Virus record (IMG/VR): IMGVR_UViG_2671180349_000007
DNA from: a virus
Lineage: Duplodnaviria > Heunggongvirae > Uroviricota > Caudoviricetes
Strand: one strand, 5' to 3'
DNA length: 36,567 nucleotides
Shown here: one piece after another, positions 13,991 through 36,521 of the stretch
Position numbering within the stretch: the stretch's first letter is position 1
Layout of the letters: each line of letters starts with the position of its first letter
Notes under the pieces: generated by a model
What the model saw: only the letters and a program-made list of their open reading frames with translations
Told to the model about the DNA's origin: nothing
The model's database searches: none
Made by a program: the position numbers and the translations under genes

Positions 13991-14497
13991 TTGAGTATTT
14001 TCAATAAACACGCACACCAGGAACGTCCGTACATCGTCATAGTAGATATTGATGGGACGATATCAGAGGCAACGGAAGACAGGCTGCATTTACTTCCACC
14101 ACCTGGCAAAGGTGCATTAACAGAGCACTGGAACGAGTTTAACCTTGCCTGTGACACTGATGCTCCCATCACTCCAGTTATTGATATGGTGCGCCAGTTG
14201 TCCGGCATTTACACCCTCTGGTTTGTAACCGGGCGCTGTGAGATAGCCAGGGATAAAACACGAGCCTGGTTGCGTAAGCACGTAACAAATGGGGCTGAGC
14301 CTTTGCTATCTATGCGTCCTGCCACCGATGACAGAAATGACGGTCCAGCAAAGATTGATCTCCTGAAGAAAATTGGTCTAAGTAAAATTGCGTTCGCGCT
14401 GGAAGATAAGATTGAAGTGGCGCGTGTTTTCAGGAGTCACGGCGTACTTACGTTAATGGTCAGGGAGTATGAAAACGCGCTTCTTCATCAACAATAA
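13991..14497 (+). CDS. HAD-superfamily phosphatase-like protein
   Basis: TTG start with GAGGAGGG RBS; motif I VIVDIDGT, then FVTGR and DKTRAW elements. Confidence 0.55.
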   Translation: MSIFNKHAHQERPYIVIVDIDGTISEATEDRLHLLPPPGKGALTEHWNEFNLACDTDAPITPVIDMVRQLSGIYTLWFVTGRCEIARDKTRAWLRKHVTNGAEPLLSMRPATDDRNDGPAKIDLLKKIGLSKIAFALEDKIEVARVFRSHGVLTLMVREYENALLHQQ

Positions 14498-14513
14498 TTG
14501 CTCTAATAAATCT
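14497..14513 (+). promoter_or_regulatory. C1 operator
   Basis: ATTGCTCTAATAAATCT, 16/17 match to consensus, overlapping the HAD stop codon. Confidence 0.65.
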
Positions 14514-18444: not shown

Positions 18445-18678
18445 ATGGGAAAATTAACTTTTGTAGTCGAATTTGAGGATGGCAAAGAGCCACCTGTTAG
18501 CGCCAATCTTGATGTTGCTGGTGGCAGGCTGGTTTCGGTTCTATTTGGTGATTACCGCGACGACTTCTTTCAGCCTGAAGAAGTTGATGTAGTGCGAGAA
18601 GCATTAAACGAGCTAAGTGTTGATAACGATGATGCTCATGCGGAAATCATCAAAAAAATGGAACTGCTAACTCACTAA
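18445..18678 (+). CDS. acidic hypothetical protein (77 aa)
   Basis: ORF in track; same operon. Confidence 0.4.
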   Translation: MGKLTFVVEFEDGKEPPVSANLDVAGGRLVSVLFGDYRDDFFQPEEVDVVREALNELSVDNDDAHAEIIKKMELLTH

Positions 18679-18856
18679 ATTATCAATTATGGTGCTATCA
18701 CCTACGACACCGAGAGAAAATTTATAATGTCAAAAGTAAATGTTTTGATTTTTTCAGCAATTGTTGGCTTTGGTTTTACTGCCGGAGTGCAGATTTATAT
18801 TGCGTGGGAAAAAATCATCAACTACGCATGGAGTTGTTTTATTAAGTGAGGTAAGT

Positions 18857-19150
18857 ATGTGGAGAGGTAATAGTCATGGCAAAAGCCAGATGATACTTAC
18901 CGAATATAAGCTAGACCACAAAACCAATAAATCACGCTCAGTATATTTGCTCCGGCACAATAGCCGCGTAAGAAATACCTTGCTGGAACAAAATCTGACA
19001 GTTGAAATGGATAATTACGGTGGATTCAAGCCAACAATTTCGCTTGATGATTTTCCTCGTGGTTTAAGCGAAAGAGAAGCAATGCTGAAATTAGCAGAAT
19101 GGCTACAAAGATTAAGCATTGCTATTGAAGATAACTGGTCTGAACCTTAA
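18857..19150 (+). CDS. hypothetical protein (97 aa)
   Basis: GAGG RBS 6-7 nt before ATG 18857; a 39-aa hydrophobic ORF (18727-18846) lies just upstream. Confidence 0.4.
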   Translation: MWRGNSHGKSQMILTEYKLDHKTNKSRSVYLLRHNSRVRNTLLEQNLTVEMDNYGGFKPTISLDDFPRGLSEREAMLKLAEWLQRLSIAIEDNWSEP

Positions 19151-19156
19151 ATTTAT

Positions 19157-19531
19157 ATGATGACACTAAAACATTTTCTTGACCGCCCATTATGGGCGGC
19201 AGCCGCAGGCTATGACTTTAATTATATGGATTGCATGTCTTATACTGCCAATGCATACGACCATTCGTTCAGCCTGCTGTTTAATTCTTTAAGAATATTG
19301 CCGGAAACAGAAGTTGGAGAGCTTCATTTATGGCTATTGGGCTTTATCGCGGCTGTCGTTGGTATTGCTGTATGGCCTTTTATTTTCTGGCTGGTGGCTG
19401 TTGTAGTGTGGTTTAAGTGCAAGACATACCGGAAAAAGTATTTCTTAGGTGATGGAATGACTGATATTGCCAAAATGAACATTGAAAAATGGACTAAGGA
19501 ATGTGAAAAGAAATGGCGCAAAAAGAAATGA
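19157..19531 (+). CDS. membrane protein (124 aa)
   Basis: Hydrophobic segment LWLLGFIAAVVGIAVWPFIFWLVAVVVWF and basic C-terminus. Confidence 0.5.
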   Translation: MMTLKHFLDRPLWAAAAGYDFNYMDCMSYTANAYDHSFSLLFNSLRILPETEVGELHLWLLGFIAAVVGIAVWPFIFWLVAVVVWFKCKTYRKKYFLGDGMTDIAKMNIEKWTKECEKKWRKKK

Positions 19532-20172
19532 CTACTCTAACGACAGCATACTTACAGCAATTGGTATTTTTTGCAGGCGAGGCTACTTGTCATCCTGACG
19601 CAAACTATTTATTGGAATTTGAGAGGTTAGCGTCACCCGGTATCGTTCTGGAACTGGCCCAACAGGTGCTGGCCTTGAGACAAAAAGAGCAACATGAAAG
19701 TAATACGTGTAGATTGAATTTTGAGCAGTGGCTGGAACAGCAACGCGGAAAAATCGATGTGGACTGTGGTTGTGTGTCCACTGAAACATTCATGCACTGG
19801 CTGCGGGTAGCTTACGAGGCTGGCAACTATCCGGATATTCCGGATAGTTCGGTGCCAGCGCCAGGAAAGGGCGTCACCGGTGAACGTATCCGCATTAAGC
19901 CGCATGTTTATCGCGAACTGGTTAACCGTCTCCACGATACAGCGATCAAGTGTGCTGGCACCCAGCAATTACGAGAAAGAATTAGCCGTGTTTTGGGCGA
20001 CGTTATTACGCCATATCATCATAAACAAGCCGAGAAAAGCGGTCTGGAAAGGGGGCATCTTGAGGCAGCATTAAACATTAAGCCGGGGCATACGCTTGGC
20101 ATTATTGATGCACTGTTGGTTCATAAGATGGCCAGGGCTTTATTGTCGTTGGTAGGGGGCAATGACAACTAG
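19513..20172 (+). CDS. hypothetical protein (219 aa)
   Basis: ORF in track; overlaps the previous gene by 19 nt. Confidence 0.5.
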   Translation: MAQKEMTTLTTAYLQQLVFFAGEATCHPDANYLLEFERLASPGIVLELAQQVLALRQKEQHESNTCRLNFEQWLEQQRGKIDVDCGCVSTETFMHWLRVAYEAGNYPDIPDSSVPAPGKGVTGERIRIKPHVYRELVNRLHDTAIKCAGTQQLRERISRVLGDVITPYHHKQAEKSGLERGHLEAALNIKPGHTLGIIDALLVHKMARALLSLVGGNDN

Positions 20173-20256
20173 GAAAAAATCGCATTACTGGTGGCAAAGC
20201 CATAACTACTGATACAATATTTCTAGGTTAAAGATCTGGCATTAGGTAGAGATAGC

Positions 20257-20721
20257 ATGTTTCTTCATATCAATCCCGATTGGGCATCAGCTATTGCGGC
20301 ATTTGGGTCAGCAATAGCTGCTTTTATTAGTTTGCGCACAAGTAAAAAGCTTGGATTATTCGATAAGGAAAAATTTTATAGTGAAGCATTGATAAACTTT
20401 GCTGATAGGGCAAATAAAATAGCAACAGGAAAAGCTGGATCAGACTGGGATGTTAATGACGCAAGTAATATAATTCTTTCACTAAATGCCGCAAAAGAAA
20501 CTATTGAAAGTGCGCCAAAACCTATTCGAGAGCAACTAAAACAATATTACAAACATAATCTTTGCCATGAGATCATAACCGAATTAGAGGCTCACTCTCC
20601 CCCAGATTCAGTAATTGTAAGAGAACCATCAGAGTATGAAGGCAAGATCATGGGATTGTGGGATGAGATTAAAATATTTCTGGGTTATACAGTGGTATCA
20701 GAAGCAGACCTTGAAGATTAA
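20257..20721 (+). CDS. low-GC membrane-anchored hypothetical protein (154 aa)
   Basis: Gene is visibly AT-rich relative to its neighbours; N-terminal hydrophobic helix WASAIAAFGSAIAAFISL; lies directly upstream of phd. Confidence 0.55.
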   Translation: MFLHINPDWASAIAAFGSAIAAFISLRTSKKLGLFDKEKFYSEALINFADRANKIATGKAGSDWDVNDASNIILSLNAAKETIESAPKPIREQLKQYYKHNLCHEIITELEAHSPPDSVIVREPSEYEGKIMGLWDEIKIFLGYTVVSEADLED

Positions 20722-20828
20722 AGTTTGGTGTGACCACATCATTTCATCAATGATGCCCGAAGTGGGGAGTTTGACGATTGTCCGGTGATTTAAGCTGCAA
20801 AGTGCTGGTGCTTTATGCTTGTGAAGTT

Positions 20829-20858
20829 TATAATTGTGTACACATAACGAGTACACGA
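20829..20858 (+). promoter_or_regulatory. phd-doc promoter and operator
   Basis: TATAAT -10 followed by palindromic TGTGTACACA and GAGTACACG sites, matching the Phd autoregulatory operator as I recall it. Confidence 0.6.
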
Positions 20859-20865
20859 GGTGTTT

Positions 20866-21087
20866 ATGCAATCCATTAACTTCCGTACCGCGCGTGGCAA
20901 CCTTTCTGAAGTGCTCAACAATGTTGAAGCCGGGGAAGAGGTTGAAATCACCCGCAGAGGCCGTGAGCCAGCAGTAATTGTCAGCAAGGCTACTTTCGAA
21001 GCCTACAAAAAAGCGGCGCTGGATGCTGAATTTGCATCCCTGTTTGACACCCTGGACTCCACCAACAAGGAACTGGTTAACCGATAA
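20866..21087 (+). CDS. phd: Phd antitoxin
   Basis: 73-aa protein [26 protein letters not shown]... recognised as P1 Phd. Confidence 0.95.
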
Positions 21088-21467
21088 TGAGGCATATATC
21101 ACCGGAAGAACTTATTGCGCTTCATGATGCGAATATAAACCGCTACGGCGGCCTGCCGGGAATGTCAGATCCGGGTAGGGCAGAGGCCATTATCGGGAGA
21201 GTTCAGGCCAGAGTTGCCTACGAAGAGATCACCGACCTTTTCGAAGTCTCCGCCACCTACCTGGTGGCTACAGCGAGAGGGCATATATTCAATGATGCCA
21301 ATAAGCGTACCGCGCTAAACAGTGCGCTGTTATTTCTACGCCGTAACGGGGTGCAGGTATTTGATTCACCTGAACTGGCAGACCTTACCGTAGGGGCTGC
21401 GACCGGAGAGATATCTGTATCTTCTGTCGCCGACACGTTACGTAGATTGTATGGTTCCGCGGAGTAG
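21087..21467 (+). CDS. doc: Doc toxin (Fic-fold kinase)
   Basis: 126-aa protein recognised as P1 Doc; ATG overlaps the phd stop (TAATG). Confidence 0.95.
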
Positions 21468-26045: not shown

Positions 26046-26178
26046 GTGTTTTTTGACTGCCGATGTTACATTGAACCTGACCTCTTGCGCCTTGAGGCAT
26101 TTTCGGTTTATGCTTATCAGGCACCTCAGTAAAACGGGTGCCGGGATTGGAACCCCGGATAATGTCAAAGGCGACACA

Positions 26179-26200
26179 GACGCCAAAAGCGTCTTTTTTT
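26179..26200 (+). terminator. intrinsic terminator or attenuator
   Basis: GACGC-caaaa-GCGTC followed by seven T residues. Confidence 0.55.
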
Positions 26201-26224: not shown

Positions 26225-26320
26225 CGTAGCGTTTAGCTCAGAGATCAATGGTAGTGCTGGCTGGGCTGCCGAAAGGCAGGCCGGTTCCCTTTGACGCCGG
26301 TAGTTCCAACCCAGTCAGTG
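26225..26320 (+). ncRNA. c4-like antisense regulatory RNA (boundaries approximate)
   Basis: Multi-stem structure (ctggg...cccag enclosing a GAAA-tetraloop hairpin and a ccgg hairpin) exposing GTTCCAA/GGTTCC, complementary to the two GATTGGAACC loops at 26145-26154 and 26334-26343; position upstream of icd-ant as in P1 ImmI. Confidence 0.3.
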
Positions 26321-26385
26321 CTACCGCCATTGAGATTGGAACCTCACGCGGTAGCTCCTTAACTTAGTCAAAGGAGGCTGCCATT

Positions 26386-26607
26386 ATGGCTACTATCCCT
26401 ACCCCAACTCATCCTGAATTTATCTGGCGCTTTTACTCCTGCCAGAAACGTCACTATCACTTCGTTATTGCACCGACAGAAGATGAGGCTCGCTCTCAGC
26501 TTCCTGATGCACCCTGTATTTTCTCCGCCCGTTTTTCTACTGATTCGCGCAATTCTCTCAGTTACTGGTGCCTCCCTGTTAACACTTCTGCTCAGGAGGG
26601 ACTATGA
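26386..26607 (+). CDS. icd: Icd-like protein (73 aa)
   Basis: AAGGAGG RBS; 73-aa ORF overlapping the ant start (ATGA), the P1 ImmI arrangement. Confidence 0.55.
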   Translation: MATIPTPTHPEFIWRFYSCQKRHYHFVIAPTEDEARSQLPDAPCIFSARFSTDSRNSLSYWCLPVNTSAQEGL

Positions 26608-27659
26608 GAACGTCATTAGTCACCCGTGAAGAGATGATCGAGGCAATTGAACAGCACACTGCCTGTATCAGTACCAGGGATATACCGGGCGTTATTGCCA
26701 ACTACTTCATGATCACCAAACAACTTTACCGGAGAAAGGACAAGAACGCTGTTCACCGCATTCTGTTGTCTGATATCCGCGAATACCTGCTCGAACAGGG
26801 GCATCTGAATTACGCAACCGTCGCAGCCGAAACACGCAAGGAGGCACACAGAATGAAAGCAAGCAAACCAGATGTTGTCGTTACAAAGCCTTTGACAGCA
26901 ACCACACCAGCACCGGTCATGGATGCTATCCCCAACACCGGAGACACAATCGACAGCCAGACGCTGTTAAAGATGGTTAATGAGGCGCGTAAGTTATGTG
27001 GGGAACCATTAGTAAGAAATAATAAGTTTATTGAGAAGGTTGTGGATGAGCTTGAAGGTGAGACCTACACAAAAAGTGTAGGTCGCAAAAATGGTGCAAA
27101 CATAGACATTATCACCATGACTTTCAAACAAGCCCTGCGAGTCGCCGCGCGCGAGTCAAAAGCGGTCCGCCGTTCGCTGATCGACAAGCTGGAGGAGTTG
27201 CAGCAGGTTAGCGCTGCTTCTCCAGCGATCCCCCAAACATTGCCCGAAGCTCTGCGCCTGGCTGCCGAACTGGCTGAACAAAAGCAACTTCTGGAACAGA
27301 AAGCCCACCAGCTAAATCAGCAGCTGGTGGCCGCAGCCCCCAAAGTCGATTTTGCCGACCGGGTATCAGTGGCTAAGGGGATCCTGATTGGAAATTTTGC
27401 AAAGGTTGTTGGACTTAAGCAAAACGCGCTGTTTGCCTGGTTACGGGAGAACGGCATCCTGATTGCGTCCGGCGGACGTAAAAATGTGCCATTCCAGCAG
27501 TACATCAACGCCGGGTATTTCACTGTGAAAGAAGTGGTGCTAGATGATGAAGATGGCTACCAGATACGGCTGACGCCTCAATTAACGGGGAAAGGCCAGC
27601 AGTGGTTGACGCGTAAGCTGCTCGATGCTGGCTTGTTAAAACCGGTGGCGGCTGAATAA
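26604..27659 (+). CDS. ant: antirepressor Ant, KilAC-type C-terminal domain
   Basis: 351-aa ORF coupled to icd; C-terminal ILIGNFAKVVGLKQNALFAWLRENGIL region typical of phage antirepressors. Confidence 0.7.
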   Translation: MRTSLVTREEMIEAIEQHTACISTRDIPGVIANYFMITKQLYRRKDKNAVHRILLSDIREYLLEQGHLNYATVAAETRKEAHRMKASKPDVVVTKPLTATTPAPVMDAIPNTGDTIDSQTLLKMVNEARKLCGEPLVRNNKFIEKVVDELEGETYTKSVGRKNGANIDIITMTFKQALRVAARESKAVRRSLIDKLEELQQVSAASPAIPQTLPEALRLAAELAEQKQLLEQKAHQLNQQLVAAAPKVDFADRVSVAKGILIGNFAKVVGLKQNALFAWLRENGILIASGGRKNVPFQQYINAGYFTVKEVVLDDEDGYQIRLTPQLTGKGQQWLTRKLLDAGLLKPVAAE

Positions 27660-28863: not shown

Positions 28864-29101
28864 AATTATGCCTCACTGTATTGACAACACAGAGCCTGAA
28901 GCTCTGACCTACTGTTTCACCCATGATCCATGCTGGGGTAATCTAACAACATTGCGCTGTGTGTAAGATGAGCAATGCATAGCTGTAATGCCGTTGTATA
29001 AGGTTTCCCTGTTTGCTCATTTCCTTCTGAGCCGCTCTACAACGCTGAAGACACATTAAATAGTGAATCCAAAGCCGTATTACGTAACGGCGGCAAAACT
29101 A

Positions 29102-29118
29102 TAATTTATTAGAGCAAT
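29102..29118 (-). promoter_or_regulatory. C1 operator upstream of coi (Op99 cluster)
   Basis: TAATTTATTAGAGCAAT, reverse complement of the consensus. Confidence 0.6.
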
Positions 29119-29184
29119 TGTCAAACAACTATGAAAAACAATCCAGTTTTTAGCTGGTGGAGTGGGATTTTTCTCTCAAAATTT

Positions 29185-29201
29185 ATTGCTCTAATGATTC
29201 T
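29185..29201 (+). promoter_or_regulatory. C1 operator upstream of coi (Op99 cluster)
   Basis: ATTGCTCTAATGATTCT. Confidence 0.6.
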
Positions 29202-29244
29202 TGATTTTTGTGCGCAGCTGGACGTAAACTCCTATTCGGACCTG

Positions 29245-29278
29245 ATAACTTCGTATAGCATACATTATACGAAGTTAT
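29245..29278. other. loxP recombination site
   Basis: Exact 34-bp ATAACTTCGTATA-GCATACAT-TATACGAAGTTAT. Confidence 0.98.
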
Positions 29279-29349
29279 CTTAAGGGTTATTGAACATGAT
29301 CAATTTACCTGTAAATCCATACAGTTCAATACCTTATCAGGTCAAATAG

Positions 29350-29371
29350 TGATCACTTGATCATTTGATCA
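29350..29371. promoter_or_regulatory. Dam-site cluster (three TGATCA hexamers at 8-bp spacing) in the cre upstream region
   Basis: TGATCACTTGATCATTTGATCA; consistent with methylation-sensitive cre promoter control described for P1. Confidence 0.5.
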
Positions 29372-29467
29372 AGGTTGCGCTACGTAAAATCTGCGAAATG
29401 TTGGCAGTGTTAGTGCTCCAGATTTCGCGTAGCGCACTTAGCACCACCAATCAATCAGAGGTGAAAA

Positions 29468-29689
29468 ATGGGATATTCAGCTGCTAAAGTGTCCACTCAT
29501 CTTGAGCTTGAGAAAAACCGTGGTTACTGGCGGGCAAAAGGGTTTGAGCGTGATAGTTACCAACTGTCATTATCTCGCGGCGAAGAGAAAATAGAACGCA
29601 CGCGCGGTCGCTGGCGTTTCTATGACGAGAACCATAACCAGGTAAAGGCAGAGCCAATCCTGTACACTCTGCTGAAAACAATAATTTAA
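29468..29689 (+). CDS. hypothetical basic protein (73 aa) between loxP and cre
   Basis: GAGGTG RBS; preceded by a long imperfect palindrome (29377-29435). Confidence 0.45.
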   Translation: MGYSAAKVSTHLELEKNRGYWRAKGFERDSYQLSLSRGEEKIERTRGRWRFYDENHNQVKAEPILYTLLKTII

Positions 29690-31735: not shown

Positions 31736-32689
31736 TCATTCAGCCGCCACCGGTTTTAACAAGCCAGCATCGAGCAGTTTACGCGTCAACCACTGTTGGC
31801 CTTTCCCCGTTAATTGAGGCGTCAGCCGTATCTGATAGCCATCTTCATCATCCAGCACCACTTCTTTCACTGTGAAATATCCGGCGTTTATGTACTGCTG
31901 AAACGGTACATTTTTACGTCCGCCGGACGCAATCAGGATGCCGTTCTCCCGTAACCAGGCAAACAACGCGTTTTGCTTAAGCCCAACAACCTTTGCAAAA
32001 TTTCCAATCAGGATCCCCTTGGCCCCTGATACCCGGTCGGCAAAATCGACTTTAGGGGCGGCGGCCACCAGCTGCTGATTTAGCTGGTGGGCTTTCTGTT
32101 CCAGAAGTTGCTTTTGTTCAGCCAGCTCGGCAGCCAGGCGCAGAGCTTCGGGGAGTGTTTGGGGAATCACTGGAGAAGCAGTGCTAGCCTGCTGCAATTC
32201 CTCCAGTTTGTCGATCAGCGAACGGCGGACCGCTTTTGACTCGCGCGCGGCAACTCTCAGGGCTTGTTTGTAGGTCATGGAGATAGTTTCAGATGTTGTG
32301 TTGTTTAATTTTTGCACTACGAAAATTTCGTAGTACTCACCATCCAGTTCATCCTTAACTCTGGCAATAAAATCATTATTGCGAACTGGTTTTTCGCTAC
32401 ATAATTTCCGCGCTTCATTGACCATCTTTAACAGCGTCTGGCTGTCGATTGTGTCTCCGGTGTTGGGGATAGCATCCATGGCCGTTGCTGGTGTGGTTGC
32501 TGTCAAAGGCTTTGTAACGACAACATCTGGTTTGCTTGCTTTCATTCTGTGTGCCTCCTTGCGTGTTTCGGCTGCGACGGTTGCGTAATTCAGATGCCCC
32601 TGTTCGAGCAGGTATTCGCGAATATCAGACAGCAGGATACGGTGAACCGCGTTCTTGTCCTTTCTCCGGTAAAGTTGTTTGGTGATCAT
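31736..32689 (-). pseudogene. second ant-like antirepressor copy, mosaic, 5'-truncated by transposon insertion
   Basis: 317-aa ORF matching residues 35-351 of the 26604 ant gene except for a divergent central block; its first codon abuts the transposon IR at 32693. Confidence 0.65.
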
Positions 32690-32692
32690 GAA

Positions 32693-32730
32693 GGGCTCCG
32701 TTTGGGAAACGGAAAATATTGTACGTTAAG
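32693..32730. repeat. transposon left 38-bp terminal inverted repeat
   Basis: Perfect inverted match to 36530-36567; the tnpA stop lies inside it, as is typical for the Tn3 family. Confidence 0.8.
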
Positions 32731-35713
32731 ATTGTTTTTTGTACTGGCTAACATCAACTGCTCGCAAAGGACGATACTTCCCTTTTGCCAGCTTCTTATT
32801 GTTTCTCCATATATAGTCTCCTGTCAGATTTATGTGCTCCCAGCCCAGCGGAGACAAGTGTGACAACAGTTGATCATTGATATGTAGTCCCTTCTTTTTC
32901 AGCAGATTAATGGCGTTTTCTATATATACGGTATTCCACAAAGTGATCGCGGCAGTAAGCAGCGTAAGCCCACTGGCGCGGTAACTCTGGTTTTCAAGAC
33001 CACGATCCCTTATTTCTCCCAAACGATGCATGAAGACAGCTCTGGCAAGGGCATTCCGGGCTTCCCCTTTGTTCAGACCTGCCTGAACCCTACGACGAAG
33101 CGCCGGGTCGCGGAACCAGTCCAGCATGAACAGTGTTCGCTCAATGCGACCGATTTCTCTCAACGCCTTAGCAAGGCCATTCTGTTTCGGATAACTGGCC
33201 AATTTTTTCAGCATCAGAGAAGCGGTCACTGTTCCCTGTTTTATTGAGGTCGCCAGCCTCAGAATTTCATTCCAGTGTATTTTTATCTCTTTGAGATTCA
33301 GGGGGGTTGTGGAAATAATTGACTGTAGAGCAGGATAGTTATCAGCTTTACCTTGAATAAACAAACGTTTGTCATGCAGATCCCGGATCCTTGGAGCAAA
33401 AGCGAATCCCAGCAGATGCATTAGTGCAAAAACATGCTCCGTGAAACCTGCTGTATCGGTGTAATGTTCCGTTATTTCAAGGTCACTTTCGTGATACAGA
33501 AGACCATCAAGTACGTGGGTGGAATCACGAACACGGCTGATTACTTTGGTATAAAACGGACTATATTGATCTGAGATATGCGTATAAAACTGCACTCCCG
33601 GTTCCTGACCGTACTTCAAATTAACCTGACCTGCATATCGTCCGTGGCTGCCAACCCTAAAATTCTGACCGTCAGAAGATGAGGTGGAACCGTCTCCCCA
33701 TAACGCAGCCAGCGGTCGTGACTTTTGAGCATTAACCAGTTCTGCCAGTGCAGCAGCGTACGTTTCATCACGGATGTACCATGCTTGTATGTTTTCCAGC
33801 GAAGCCCGTGTGGTTCCCGGACAGGACTCTGCCATTTTTGCCAGCCCCAGATTGATGCCGTCTGCCAGGATAGTGGTTAGTAGTAAACGGTTATCCTGAG
33901 GACGGATTAGCGGATTCTTAAGATGAGTAAAATGTCGCGAGAAGGCAGTCCATCGCTCGACTTCATCAAGTATCTCTGTGATTTTGGGGTGCGGTAGCAT
34001 GTTGTAAATCAGGTCGGCCAGGGGAGAGACTGTTGAAGGAACGCTGTTATCCAGTGGGGTGATCTTTACACCTTTATCTGAAATATCCACATCAGGAAGA
34101 TCCCCTGCGACAGCCATTGCGTTAACTTCCTCCAGACGGGAGGCCAGTAGAGTCAGTCTGGCATTAAGATAAGCCCCACATTCTGTGCCAACAGGTAAAT
34201 TTAACAGGTTATTATTTAATAACTTTTCGAAATCATCGTTAGGCATAAGATAATCATCAAAGTTTTTGTAGCGCCGGGAGCCCCTGACCCAGATATCACC
34301 CGCCCGCAGCGCCTCCTTTAGCTCATTCATTGCGCAAATTTCATAGTATTGTCGGTCAATGCCTGAGGGAGTGATCACCATCTTTCTCCAGCTCTCAGGA
34401 ATGAAATCCAGTGGTGCCGATGCAGGAACCTTTCGTAGCTGTTTACGGTACATATCACGAATAGTTTCAAGGGCATCATTAAGCGGCAAAGCTGCCGAAG
34501 TGGCTCTCAGTTGCAGGGCCGATAGAAAACGAAAAGAATATTTGCGCAATGTACTGAATTTTTCGGTAATAAGATGAAGCGGCTCAAAATTATCCTTACG
34601 TGCAAGAAGCTTTGTTTCCTCCAGACTGGCGACAAAATCGTCCCACGGTAACACTCGTTCAATAGCAGACAGAGGATCTTCGCCTGAGTTGCGTGCATCC
34701 AGGATAGCCTGGCCAACAGAAACATACTGACGTAACTTTTGCTGTATCAACTTGCCCGTTTTCTGAAGACGCTCGGCCTGCTGATGTTTTGCCCGACTGA
34801 ACATGCTGCCCAGAATACGCTCATGCAGTTCTATAATTTCATCAATGATTGTGGCTCTGACCTCAGTCAGTACACAGACCATCGTTGCGTATCGACGAGC
34901 AGGGGAAAAATCAGCCAGATCGCGACTGCTCATTTTGCGGCCCTCACGCGCGAGTTTCAGCAATCGGTTCTGGTGAACGGTTCTCTCCACTCCTTCCGGC
35001 AGCGCCAGATCTTCAATAGCGTTAAGGCGGTCAATGTGTTGCAGGACATTCTTTCCATTGATTTTCCCCGGAGGTTGAAGCAGCCACGTCAAACGGGATA
35101 TTTGTTTTTCATTTGTCACCAACAGGGCATCAAGCGCAGATTTATGCGTGATATCAAGGTGCGCATTCAGCGTTGTATAAACTGTTTTATCACCCAGTGT
35201 CATTGCTTCAGCACAGGTACGTTCCAGAACATCAATGCCAGGAATAATAATTCGCTGTTGATGCAGGTACTTCAATAACTCCTCTGCGATAAGTATGCCT
35301 CTGTCCGTTCTGGTAGACAGAGGAAGCAGATGCCGGATACATTCTTTCTGAAGCGCACCGTTAAAGGCTTTCAGTTCAAGATATCGATAAAGTTCCTGCA
35401 TATGCTCACGTCTGGTGGTATCACGACCGGAAACGTATTCCTGCCAAAGCTCTGCTGATAATTTAAGTCTGGCACTAATGATTTTTAGCAATTTTGCGGG
35501 TGGGGATGATTTTTTATCCGGAGCAAACCCAATACTTTTCAGATAACAGAGAAGAACGGCAAAACCAAACCGGCTGGCAGGTTTACGGTGAACATTGATA
35601 ATTGCCAGATCCTGTTCACTGAAATACGTCATTCGAGTTAGTGTTAACTCATCGTCTGGTAATGCCAGTAATGATTCTTTTTCCGACTGCGAAAGAATCT
35701 GCCTCCTTGCCAT
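32726..35713 (-). CDS. tnpA: Tn3-family DDE transposase TnpA
   Basis: 995-aa protein with conserved Tn3-family blocks (HYTDTAGFTEHVFALMHLLGF, ILRLATSIKQGTVTASLMLKKL, GLNKGEARNALARAVF). Confidence 0.95.
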   Translation of the reverse strand: MARRQILSQSEKESLLALPDDELTLTRMTYFSEQDLAIINVHRKPASRFGFAVLLCYLKSIGFAPDKKSSPPAKLLKIISARLKLSAELWQEYVSGRDTTRREHMQELYRYLELKAFNGALQKECIRHLLPLSTRTDRGILIAEELLKYLHQQRIIIPGIDVLERTCAEAMTLGDKTVYTTLNAHLDITHKSALDALLVTNEKQISRLTWLLQPPGKINGKNVLQHIDRLNAIEDLALPEGVERTVHQNRLLKLAREGRKMSSRDLADFSPARRYATMVCVLTEVRATIIDEIIELHERILGSMFSRAKHQQAERLQKTGKLIQQKLRQYVSVGQAILDARNSGEDPLSAIERVLPWDDFVASLEETKLLARKDNFEPLHLITEKFSTLRKYSFRFLSALQLRATSAALPLNDALETIRDMYRKQLRKVPASAPLDFIPESWRKMVITPSGIDRQYYEICAMNELKEALRAGDIWVRGSRRYKNFDDYLMPNDDFEKLLNNNLLNLPVGTECGAYLNARLTLLASRLEEVNAMAVAGDLPDVDISDKGVKITPLDNSVPSTVSPLADLIYNMLPHPKITEILDEVERWTAFSRHFTHLKNPLIRPQDNRLLLTTILADGINLGLAKMAESCPGTTRASLENIQAWYIRDETYAAALAELVNAQKSRPLAALWGDGSTSSSDGQNFRVGSHGRYAGQVNLKYGQEPGVQFYTHISDQYSPFYTKVISRVRDSTHVLDGLLYHESDLEITEHYTDTAGFTEHVFALMHLLGFAFAPRIRDLHDKRLFIQGKADNYPALQSIISTTPLNLKEIKIHWNEILRLATSIKQGTVTASLMLKKLASYPKQNGLAKALREIGRIERTLFMLDWFRDPALRRRVQAGLNKGEARNALARAVFMHRLGEIRDRGLENQSYRASGLTLLTAAITLWNTVYIENAINLLKKKGLHINDQLLSHLSPLGWEHINLTGDYIWRNNKKLAKGKYRPLRAVDVSQYKKQS

Positions 35714-35763
35714 ATAGCCTTCCTTGTAAATTATTTAGTGCGTTATTTTTGATGAAAAAGTTA

Positions 35764-35870
35764 TTGCATAAGGGTATACCCTTATGCAATAGACAAAACG
35801 TGACGGCACTCCAATAATGACATAACCTATATGCGATAGAATAAATGCAATAATCTAAACGCGATAGCGT
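35764..35870. promoter_or_regulatory. putative res site
   Basis: Perfect 26-bp palindrome TTGCATAAGGG-TATA-CCCTTATGCAA plus downstream GCGATAG repeats between divergent tnpA and tnpR. Confidence 0.5.
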
Positions 35871-35879
35871 GGTGGAAAA

Positions 35880-36521
35880 ATGTTTATCAGAGCTTATTTA
35901 AGGGCATCGACGGAAGATCAGTTCGCCGATCGGGCAAAAGAGATGCTGGAGCAGTTCGTTCAGGAGCGGGGGCATAAAATCGCCAGCTACTACCGGGAGA
36001 ACATCAGCGGCACAAAACTAGACCGCCCGGAACTGGGACGCTTACTGATAGACAGTCATCGCAATGATATCTTGCTGGTCGAGCAGATAGACCGCCTGAC
36101 CCGTCTCAGCAACAGTGACTGGATAACGCTGAAAAAGCAGATAGAACAACACGAGTTGCGGATTGTCAGTCTTGATGTGCCCACATCATGGCAGGCTCTG
36201 TCAGATAAAGATCCTTCGCAAGCGGACCCGATCACCCGCACAGTAATAACCGCAATAAATAATATGCTTATCGACCTGATGGCTGCAATGTCGCATAAAG
36301 ACTGGCTGAGTCGTCGTCAACGACAAAAACAGGGAATTGAACGTGCCCATACTTTAGGTAAGTATCGGGGCAAACAGGCAGATCGGGAACGACATCAGAA
36401 AGTAATGTACTACCGGCAGATCAAGAAACTGAGCATCCGTGAAACGGCGGAGGTGACAGGCTATAGTACTTCCCAAGTTTGTCGCATTCAGGCGCTCTAT
36501 AAAGAGGTTAAGCCTGATTAA
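35880..36521 (+). CDS. tnpR: serine recombinase/resolvase TnpR
   Basis: N-terminal RAYLRASTEDQ catalytic-serine motif, LLVEQIDRLTRL, and a C-terminal HTH. Confidence 0.85.
   Translation: MFIRAYLRASTEDQFADRAKEMLEQFVQERGHKIASYYRENISGTKLDRPELGRLLIDSHRNDILLVEQIDRLTRLSNSDWITLKKQIEQHELRIVSLDVPTSWQALSDKDPSQADPITRTVITAINNMLIDLMAAMSHKDWLSRRQRQKQGIERAHTLGKYRGKQADRERHQKVMYYRQIKKLSIRETAEVTGYSTSQVCRIQALYKEVKPD

Follow-up and report, generated by a model that had tools for sequence, protein, structure and literature searches.

What does a short, AT-rich gene contribute to a phage-plasmid when it sits just ahead of the phd-doc addiction module? The question is raised by ORF154, a 154-aa coding sequence (20257 (ATG) to 20721 (stop), plus strand) in the 36,567-nucleotide stretch of viral DNA analyzed here, which we refer to as the window. 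The original prediction described a membrane-anchored gene of low GC, inserted immediately upstream of phd-doc, and likened it to abortive-infection (Abi) and superinfection-exclusion (Sie) factors.

The segment of the window spanning phd-doc-pdcA-pdcB-lpa-pacA shows 97.7–98% identity to P1, P7 and RCS47. Further P1 landmarks comprise C1 operators identical to OpmgT and Olpa, the LPpac late-promoter box, cre, c1 and the C4 antisense RNA. This identity, together with the landmarks, assigns the window by sequence to a P1-type phage-plasmid (Punavirus). Downstream of cre, a Tn3-family transposase (994 aa, DDE_Tnp_Tn3 and DUF4158 domains, minus strand, 32726–35713) and a serine resolvase (plus strand, 35880–36521) make up a transposon insertion (32726–36521) in the cre-proximal variable region of the element. 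Between pacB and c1, an isrK-like sRNA (26121–26199), the C4 antisense RNA (26244–26331) and an ANT/KilAC antirepressor gene (26604–27659) form an immI-type module, which P1 does not have at that position; a second ANT/KilAC paralogue is located at 31736–32689 on the minus strand.

On its upstream side ORF154 is preceded by orf219 (19513–20172, plus strand), a gene resembling RCS47 gp050 whose product is 89% identical to P1 PmgU in its C-terminal half. This gene is the final conserved member of a C1-controlled plus-strand operon headed by an operator identical to P1 OpmgT (14497–14513, plus strand). Downstream follow the Pphd promoter (20806–20834, plus strand, −10 element TATAAT at 20829–20834; placed from the P1 annotation and the alignment), which is kept essentially as in P1, and then phd (20866–21087, plus strand; Pfam PhdYeFM_antitox) and doc (21087–21467, plus strand; Pfam Fic/DOC), both 97.7–98% identical to P1 and P7.

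The composition of the gene stands apart from this background, as originally claimed. ORF154 has a GC content of 0.370 (GC3 0.252) and its 84-nt leader of 0.369, compared with 0.478 on average for the window and 0.48–0.53 for phd (0.50), doc (0.525), pdcB and orf219 (0.48). In the GC profile, only 0.25% of all 465-bp segments are equally AT-rich. The AT-rich block is not a chance fluctuation, because its ends coincide with mosaic junctions. Two other low-GC patches (465-bp GC ≤0.38) were found at 18551–19196 and 28911–29516; the former spans small ORFs upstream of orf124, among them orf129 and a 40-aa hydrophobic ORF (18727–18849), and orf124 itself encodes a hydrophobic segment and a weak Cpta_toxin-like Pfam match (E=0.08).

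To the left, identity to RCS47 (97.9%) and identity to P1 pmgU both end at ~20154, six codons before the end of orf219, so that the cassette provides the last ~6 codons and the stop of that gene. To the right, identity to P1, P7 and RCS47 starts again at 20724. The 570 bp in between (20154–20723, GC 0.37) occupy the interval that in P1, P7 and RCS47 is filled by hot, a reverse-strand gene (lxr or gp049) and humD. What follows immediately is a 70-bp 3' remnant of humD (20724–20793, plus strand), identified by alignment with P1 and RCS47 and by translation; it holds the last ~23 codons, ending ...INDARSGEFDDCPVI and stop, and a 1-nt insertion has put it out of frame. By these alignments the stump is a relic of the ancestral hot-lxr-humD arrangement, and the foreign low-GC cassette is a replacement of hot-lxr-humD, not an insertion as had been proposed. 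The sequence comparison thus shows that one recombination event exchanged the three genes for a single-gene cassette in a minority lineage. At the junctions, a search for repeats returned just short matches at chance level. At one shared nucleotide, ~20154, right after ...TTATTGYCGYTGGT, the sequences of P1, RCS47 and the window each take a different course, which suggests a recurrent recombination boundary. ORF154 proved unrelated to P1 hot, lxr, humD, upfM-O and pmgT-V and to RCS47 gp049-052, and also to orf109 of D6, an extra gene located there between humD and phd.

The site belongs to a region already recognized as variable: "region 8", from pmgT through humD, is one of eight hypervariable low-GC regions of P1-like phage-plasmids (PMC9603915), and the boundary at ~20154 would be one of its own. 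Other elements have filled the same slot differently. In phages phi456 and SJ1, type I restriction-modification (R-M) genes (hsdM/hsdS) abut phd, and D6 carries its additional orf109. The presence of hsd genes beside phd agrees with a note in the P1 annotation, according to which the phd-doc flank is 98% identical to sequence adjacent to the EcoDXXI hsd genes. The arrangement seen in the window is rare. The whole cassette with both junctions was found at 99.5% identity in nine PLSDB plasmids, whose hosts are E. coli, E. albertii and E. marmotae, and in 10 of 5,426 complete E. coli genomes, where every copy resides on a ~95-kb plasmid and none is chromosomal. P1-type pacA is present in 561 of those 5,426 genomes, and a humD match in 687 (677 of them near full length); the part of humD left in the window was by itself matched in 79 plasmids, where it is annotated as S24 peptidase. 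Ten genomes with the cassette set against 561 with pacA indicate, at the level of sequence, a single acquisition found in roughly 2% of P1-type elements. Conservation across P1-like phages with a GC content typical of them, which would have spoken against the original prediction, was not observed; the gene is rare and AT-rich. In a collection of 15 billion proteins, the 90% identity cluster of ORF154 occurs on ~740 contigs, all from Escherichia.

The position next to phd-doc invites the suggestion that ORF154 is a third component or a regulator of the addiction module. Its placement 138 bp upstream of phd, on the same strand and with no predicted terminator in between, is all that favors this, and the placement itself is looser than first described: the gene does lie upstream of phd-doc on the same strand, but it does not abut the module, from which it is separated by the humD stump and the intact Pphd. 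The phd-doc module (20866–21467, plus strand) lies outside the foreign cassette and is, like its promoter, unchanged relative to P1. Moreover, phd-doc was found on 1,246 plasmids of many mobility types, just nine of which carry ORF154, and none of roughly 15 other distinct contexts of homologues has phd-doc beside the family gene. Since homologues never adjoin phd-doc and no conserved partner is seen, the proximity in the window is positional only, reflecting the edge of the variable region; the linkage is not conserved, and a role in the addiction module, effectively refuted by comparative context, is highly improbable.

To place the protein in a family, profile searches were employed. ORF154 matches phrog_1779 over its full length (E=4.7e-63; residues 1–154 on profile positions 1–169 of 169), a group without assigned function. 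An exhaustive HMMER search of 1.84 billion cluster representatives retrieved only 21 clusters (counted at the 50% identity level among 1.84 billion proteins), with 27–41% identity and lengths of ~155–175 aa, and all 21 relatives match PHROG 1779 as well. Additional proteins recovered by profile search were exclusively unnamed proteins of Cronobacter, Enterobacter, Citrobacter, Klebsiella and Pantoea, and a word-index homology search found nothing beyond the cluster of ORF154 itself. The window protein represents the most divergent branch, with at most 41% identity to any other cluster, a juxtamembrane linker seven residues shorter than in its relatives and the least hydrophobic anchor; it is also the sole branch of PHROG 1779 seen in P1-type phage-plasmids. 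The multiple alignment reveals a conserved N-terminal helix with the consensus SAxAxxAAAxAAFxS, in which A22 and S25 are conserved at ≥90%, followed by A-RAN, DW (W64 invariant) and ANI motifs and an acidic C-terminus of the form D-x-D-L-x-D, where DLxD is common to the members. Conserved positions belong mainly to the hydrophobic core, and nothing resembling a catalytic motif was seen in the family alignment. The sequence comparisons show PHROG 1779 to be a real, conserved, small orphan family of Enterobacterales temperate phages and prophages. Part of this is already known: the family is catalogued without function, the variable region is published, and identical proteins have been deposited as "hypothetical".

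Homology and structure searches did not bear out a relationship to known exclusion or abortive-infection factors, as they returned PHROG 1779 but no defense family and no fold match. Pfam, NCBIfam and PADLOC scans of ORF154 and all 21 relatives gave nothing significant; ORF154 had no match in PADLOC-DB v2 even at E≤1, and the relatives gave scattered single matches (E≥0.002) to 15 unrelated models. No similarity to known defense, Abi or Sie proteins was detected in PADLOC-DB v2 or in Pfam, including its SieB and Abi families. The fold search yielded no informative match and a profile search of PDB sequences nothing at all. In the literature, neither phrog_1779 nor the protein accessions were found in any paper, and both are absent from the DefensePredictor supplements.

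A rare gene of foreign composition might be neutral passenger DNA that serves no selected function in a P1 background; being AT-rich, it could also be subject to silencing by H-NS. Copies of the variant are indeed few and almost clonal (99.5% identity throughout), a function could not be assigned, and dN/dS between close copies is uninformative; across family pairs, all comparisons are either nearly identical or saturated. Against this stands the reading frame of ORF154, which has stayed open in hundreds of E. coli, E. albertii and E. marmotae contigs. At the level of the family, length, motifs and a confidently predicted fold are kept at 30–40% identity, which implies purifying selection on the protein, and we therefore regard the passenger explanation as quite unlikely. 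Between the copies in the E. coli phages PhiR26_1 and PhiR5_1 (5899–6408), seven amino acid differences were found with about one synonymous change (dN 0.018, dS 0.010, ratio ~1.9), which hints, on counts too low for interpretation, at rapid protein evolution.

The original prediction of an N-terminal hydrophobic helix followed by a soluble domain agrees with the modeled architecture. A short acidic N-tail (residues 1–8) is followed by a predicted membrane-spanning helix, WASAIAAFGSAIAAFISL (W9–L26; codons 9–26, 20281–20334, plus strand), delimited by hydropathy and the family alignment, and then by a basic juxtamembrane stretch, RTSKK. AF2 modeling (pLDDT 87.7) predicts a long helix at residues 7–56 and then a helical bundle, which covers residues from about 35 to 145; the protein ends in an acidic tail, SEADLED. 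The hydrophobic segment is marginal, with a peak 19-residue Kyte-Doolittle mean of 1.49, the weakest in the family. Of the 21 aligned sequences, 20 share such a segment (Kyte-Doolittle 1.45–2.5, about 55% Ala/Gly/Ser), the lone exception being the N-terminally truncated, 124-aa P0013. Among full-length members the N-terminal flank carries a charge of 0 to −2 and usually ends in D/E-W, and the C-terminal flank a charge of +1 to +3; a neutral-to-acidic N-flank with a basic C-flank predicts, under the positive-inside rule, an N-out/C-in orientation. ORF154 is thus probably a bitopic inner-membrane protein, with a layout like that of ZipA and the Pf3 coat protein; by analogy, its insertion may be Sec-independent. 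A 288-aa relative has further N-terminal hydrophobic segments that, judged by eye from the alignment, resemble extra transmembrane helices, which would fit a membrane localization. Small-xxx-small motifs involving A15, G17, A19, A21, A22 and S25 are dense in the hydrophobic helix of ORF154, a conserved pattern suggesting that it may pack on another transmembrane helix beyond mere anchoring. We infer that the soluble part is a non-enzymatic cytoplasmic helical bundle of about 125 residues with an acidic tail.

The composition of the helix also recalls SAR domains such as those of P1 Lyz and T4 RI, being 58% Ala/Gly/Ser and only weakly hydrophobic. A membrane function in the phage life cycle was therefore weighed, either in lysis timing, as a holin/antiholin-like protein or a releasable SAR-like anchor, or as a tether for replication or partition, and the location of the lambdoid family genes downstream of replication genes is compatible with such a function. 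However, SAR domains have a basic N-terminus and an N-in/C-out orientation, whereas ORF154 combines an acidic N-tail with a basic C-flank. A SAR domain with a role in lysis was rejected on this reversed charge distribution and on the missing lysis-gene context: the family gene is never part of a lysis cassette, and no holin or antiholin Pfam match was obtained. In addition, about 98% of P1-type elements do without ORF154, so its function is not a core one, and a life-cycle role of this kind is unlikely.

The genomic contexts of the relatives fall into two arrangements. In the first, the gene lies at the head of the lambdoid nin region, after O/P or ren and ahead of ninB, ninE or Q, as in PhiR26_1, PhiR5_1, pSTEC1018_2 and Enterobacter, Klebsiella and metagenomic prophages; in PhiR26_1 and pSTEC1018_2 it occupies the ren-ninB hot spot, two genes from PD-lambda-1. 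In the second, the leftward early operon carries it at its distal end, with Erf/RecT recombination genes on one side and xis/int on the other, as in Cronobacter and Pantoea prophages, Erwinia phage vB_EhrS_49 and a metagenomic prophage. All contexts read are those of temperate Enterobacterales phages or prophages, and 50,697 phage records contained no virulent phage with a relative. The homologues all run in the same direction as an early lytic operon; neither a conserved partner gene nor consistent adjacency to defense genes was seen in the contexts read. Their neighbors echo the operon upstream of ORF154 in the window, with Ead/Ea22, DUF551 and a homologue of hot, and also include Dam methylases; in Pantoea, the hot homologue (DNA polymerase III theta) lies three genes upstream of the family gene. 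These shared neighbors suggest that the cassette was acquired via recombination with a lambdoid early region.

Within these operons the gene appears set apart. Its GC is below that of its flanks in 9 of 11 contexts scored and level with them in one more (PhiR26_1). The spacers around it have a median of 186 bp, whereas 120 further co-directional pairs from these loci have a median of −1 bp (Mann-Whitney p = 9e-7). Strong intrinsic terminators were predicted right downstream of the family gene in four loci (L006, L008, L012/13 and L019) and directly upstream of it in PhiR26_1 (−18.6 kcal/mol, z = −3.95) and in an E. asburiae plasmid (L021). LexA-box-like palindromes occur past the terminator of the family gene in Cronobacter prophages (L012/L013, 7700–7760, TACTGTATATAAATACAGTT) and in L006 (~6720); they control the next gene, and it is this neighboring unit, not the family gene, that looks SOS-regulated.

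For ORF154 itself, a promoter candidate is a sigma-70 site at 20191–20218 (plus strand), found by consensus scan with 9/12 matches plus TG: GTGGCA, a 16-nt spacer and TACAAT, with the extended −10 element TGaTACAAT at 20210–20218; the ATG follows 39 nt downstream. The region contains no more such matches than expected by chance (3 found vs 3.9 expected in shuffles), and a consensus promoter precedes the gene in 1 of 10 homologue contexts. A Shine-Dalgarno-like AGGTAG lies at 20244–20249 (plus strand), its AGGT core (20244–20247) ending 9 nt before the start codon. No C1 operator, Lpa late-promoter −22 box or LexA box was found in or adjoining the cassette, the closest upstream control element being the C1 operator at 14497; Rfam reported no family in the region, and leader and trailer form no stable RNA structure. 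From these predicted signals, expression of ORF154 in the lysogen is plausible. However, the operon behind the operator at 14497, which encodes Ead/Ea22, DUF551 and other proteins, reaches ORF154 with no terminator predicted on the way, so the gene may be expressed only after induction or infection.

Such read-through underlies another possible, if doubtful, explanation, that ORF154 is an early lytic accessory protein acting in host takeover or anti-defense, whose transcription would follow induction or infection along with the rest of the C1-controlled pmgT-type operon. From its membrane anchor, the protein would act on a host factor, such as a division or envelope protein or a membrane-bound defense effector, by sequestering or inhibiting it. 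The gene could be swapped functionally for other dispensable early genes, hot and humD among them, its lambdoid counterparts belonging to the pL/pR operons. Consistent with this, all homologues are co-oriented within an early operon, downstream of O/P or of Erf/RecT-kil-cIII, among early accessory genes (Ead/Ea22, DUF551, Dam methylases and, in Pantoea, the hot homologue), and ORF154 itself took the place of host-modulating accessory genes. On the other hand, the flanking terminators and long spacers speak for insulation from the surrounding operon, the confinement to temperate phages among the 50,697 records is not what this explanation would lead one to expect, and no likeness to known anti-defense proteins was seen.

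We tentatively favor, at less than even confidence, the interpretation that ORF154 is a moron-like conversion gene. In the lysogen, its own promoter would account for at least part of its transcription, its product would bind a host inner-membrane protein or a component of the incoming phage at the cytoplasmic face of the membrane, and this binding would result in the exclusion or abortion of other phages. For the family as a whole we hypothesize, more doubtfully, that PHROG 1779 is a new single-gene, non-enzymatic, membrane-tethered exclusion/Abi family with N-out/C-in (ZipA-like) topology, which shuttles between lambdoid hot spots and P1-type phage-plasmids and whose small-residue helix docks on a host inner-membrane protein used by incoming phages. 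Counted in favor of exclusion are the cassette swap in a known hypervariable low-GC region, the rarity and foreign composition of the gene, the use of the slot by R-M genes in phi456 and SJ1, the hot spot shared with PD-lambda-1, the long spacers and terminators at homologues, the restriction to temperate phages, a well-placed extended −10 candidate, and a cassette free of C1 operator, late promoter and LexA box. Counted against it are the missing similarity to defense, Abi or Sie proteins and to any informative fold, a promoter candidate at chance level, the early-operon co-orientation, the marginal helix (1.49) and homologues that are not consistently beside defense genes; a cytoplasmic soluble domain is also atypical for blockers of DNA injection that act on the periplasmic side. 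A defense or exclusion role of ORF154 is plausible, and modulation of the host early in the lytic cycle has about the same probability. Near-certain from the sequence analysis, in contrast to these functional readings, is that ORF154 makes up an accessory cassette of one gene, gained by horizontal transfer and placed in a known variable region, and encodes a conserved, non-enzymatic helical protein that is probably membrane-anchored.

Comparison with known systems places this interpretation in context. The hot-lxr-humD cassette of P1, P7 and RCS47 shares with the ORF154 cassette its slot, from the pmgU-like gene to Pphd, its dispensability, its variability among lineages and its low GC, but no sequence relationship connects them; the products of hot and humD are soluble accessory proteins of replication and the SOS response, expressed under late-promoter and LexA control, whereas the ORF154 cassette lacks such control sites and encodes a predicted membrane protein. 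Lambdoid morons include HK97 gp15, a small single-pass inner-membrane exclusion protein, as well as lambda bor and lom. Like them, the ORF154 family consists of a single small gene of deviant GC with long spacers and often terminators in otherwise tight operons, encoding a predicted membrane protein. Unlike them, it is located in the early and not the late or tail region, its soluble domain is predicted to be cytoplasmic, the own promoter of ORF154 is only a candidate, and no homology to gp15, Bor or Lom was found. Lactococcal Sie2009-type proteins and AbiP are N-terminally anchored exclusion or Abi proteins of Gram-positive prophages. They resemble ORF154 in size (about 150–170 aa), in having one N-terminal anchor and a soluble domain, which in AbiP is cytoplasmic, and in being single-gene, prophage-encoded systems; they differ in host phylum and show no detectable sequence or fold similarity to ORF154, whose function is only proposed. 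Finally, homologues of ORF154 share the ren-ninB hot spot with the defense genes there, including PD-lambda-1 (PhiR26_1, pSTEC1018_2), but the latter encodes a large, unrelated DUF4041 protein on the opposite strand, whereas the relatives of ORF154 are co-oriented with the early operon.

At present, ORF154 is one among many uncharacterized accessory genes in a known variable region, and its immediate significance is modest; it is a reasonable candidate for a phage-challenge screen rather than a surprising object. In E. coli, P1-type phage-plasmids commonly carry resistance genes. If ORF154 excludes phages, a compact single-gene membrane defense would be added to the repertoire, and the hot-humD slot of these elements would be a point of exchange for defense and accessory genes shared with the lambdoid ren-ninB hot spot. 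If it instead modulates the host early in the lytic cycle, it would represent a new membrane-tethered takeover factor. On either reading, PHROG 1779 is a small, cleanly delimited and easily tested family.
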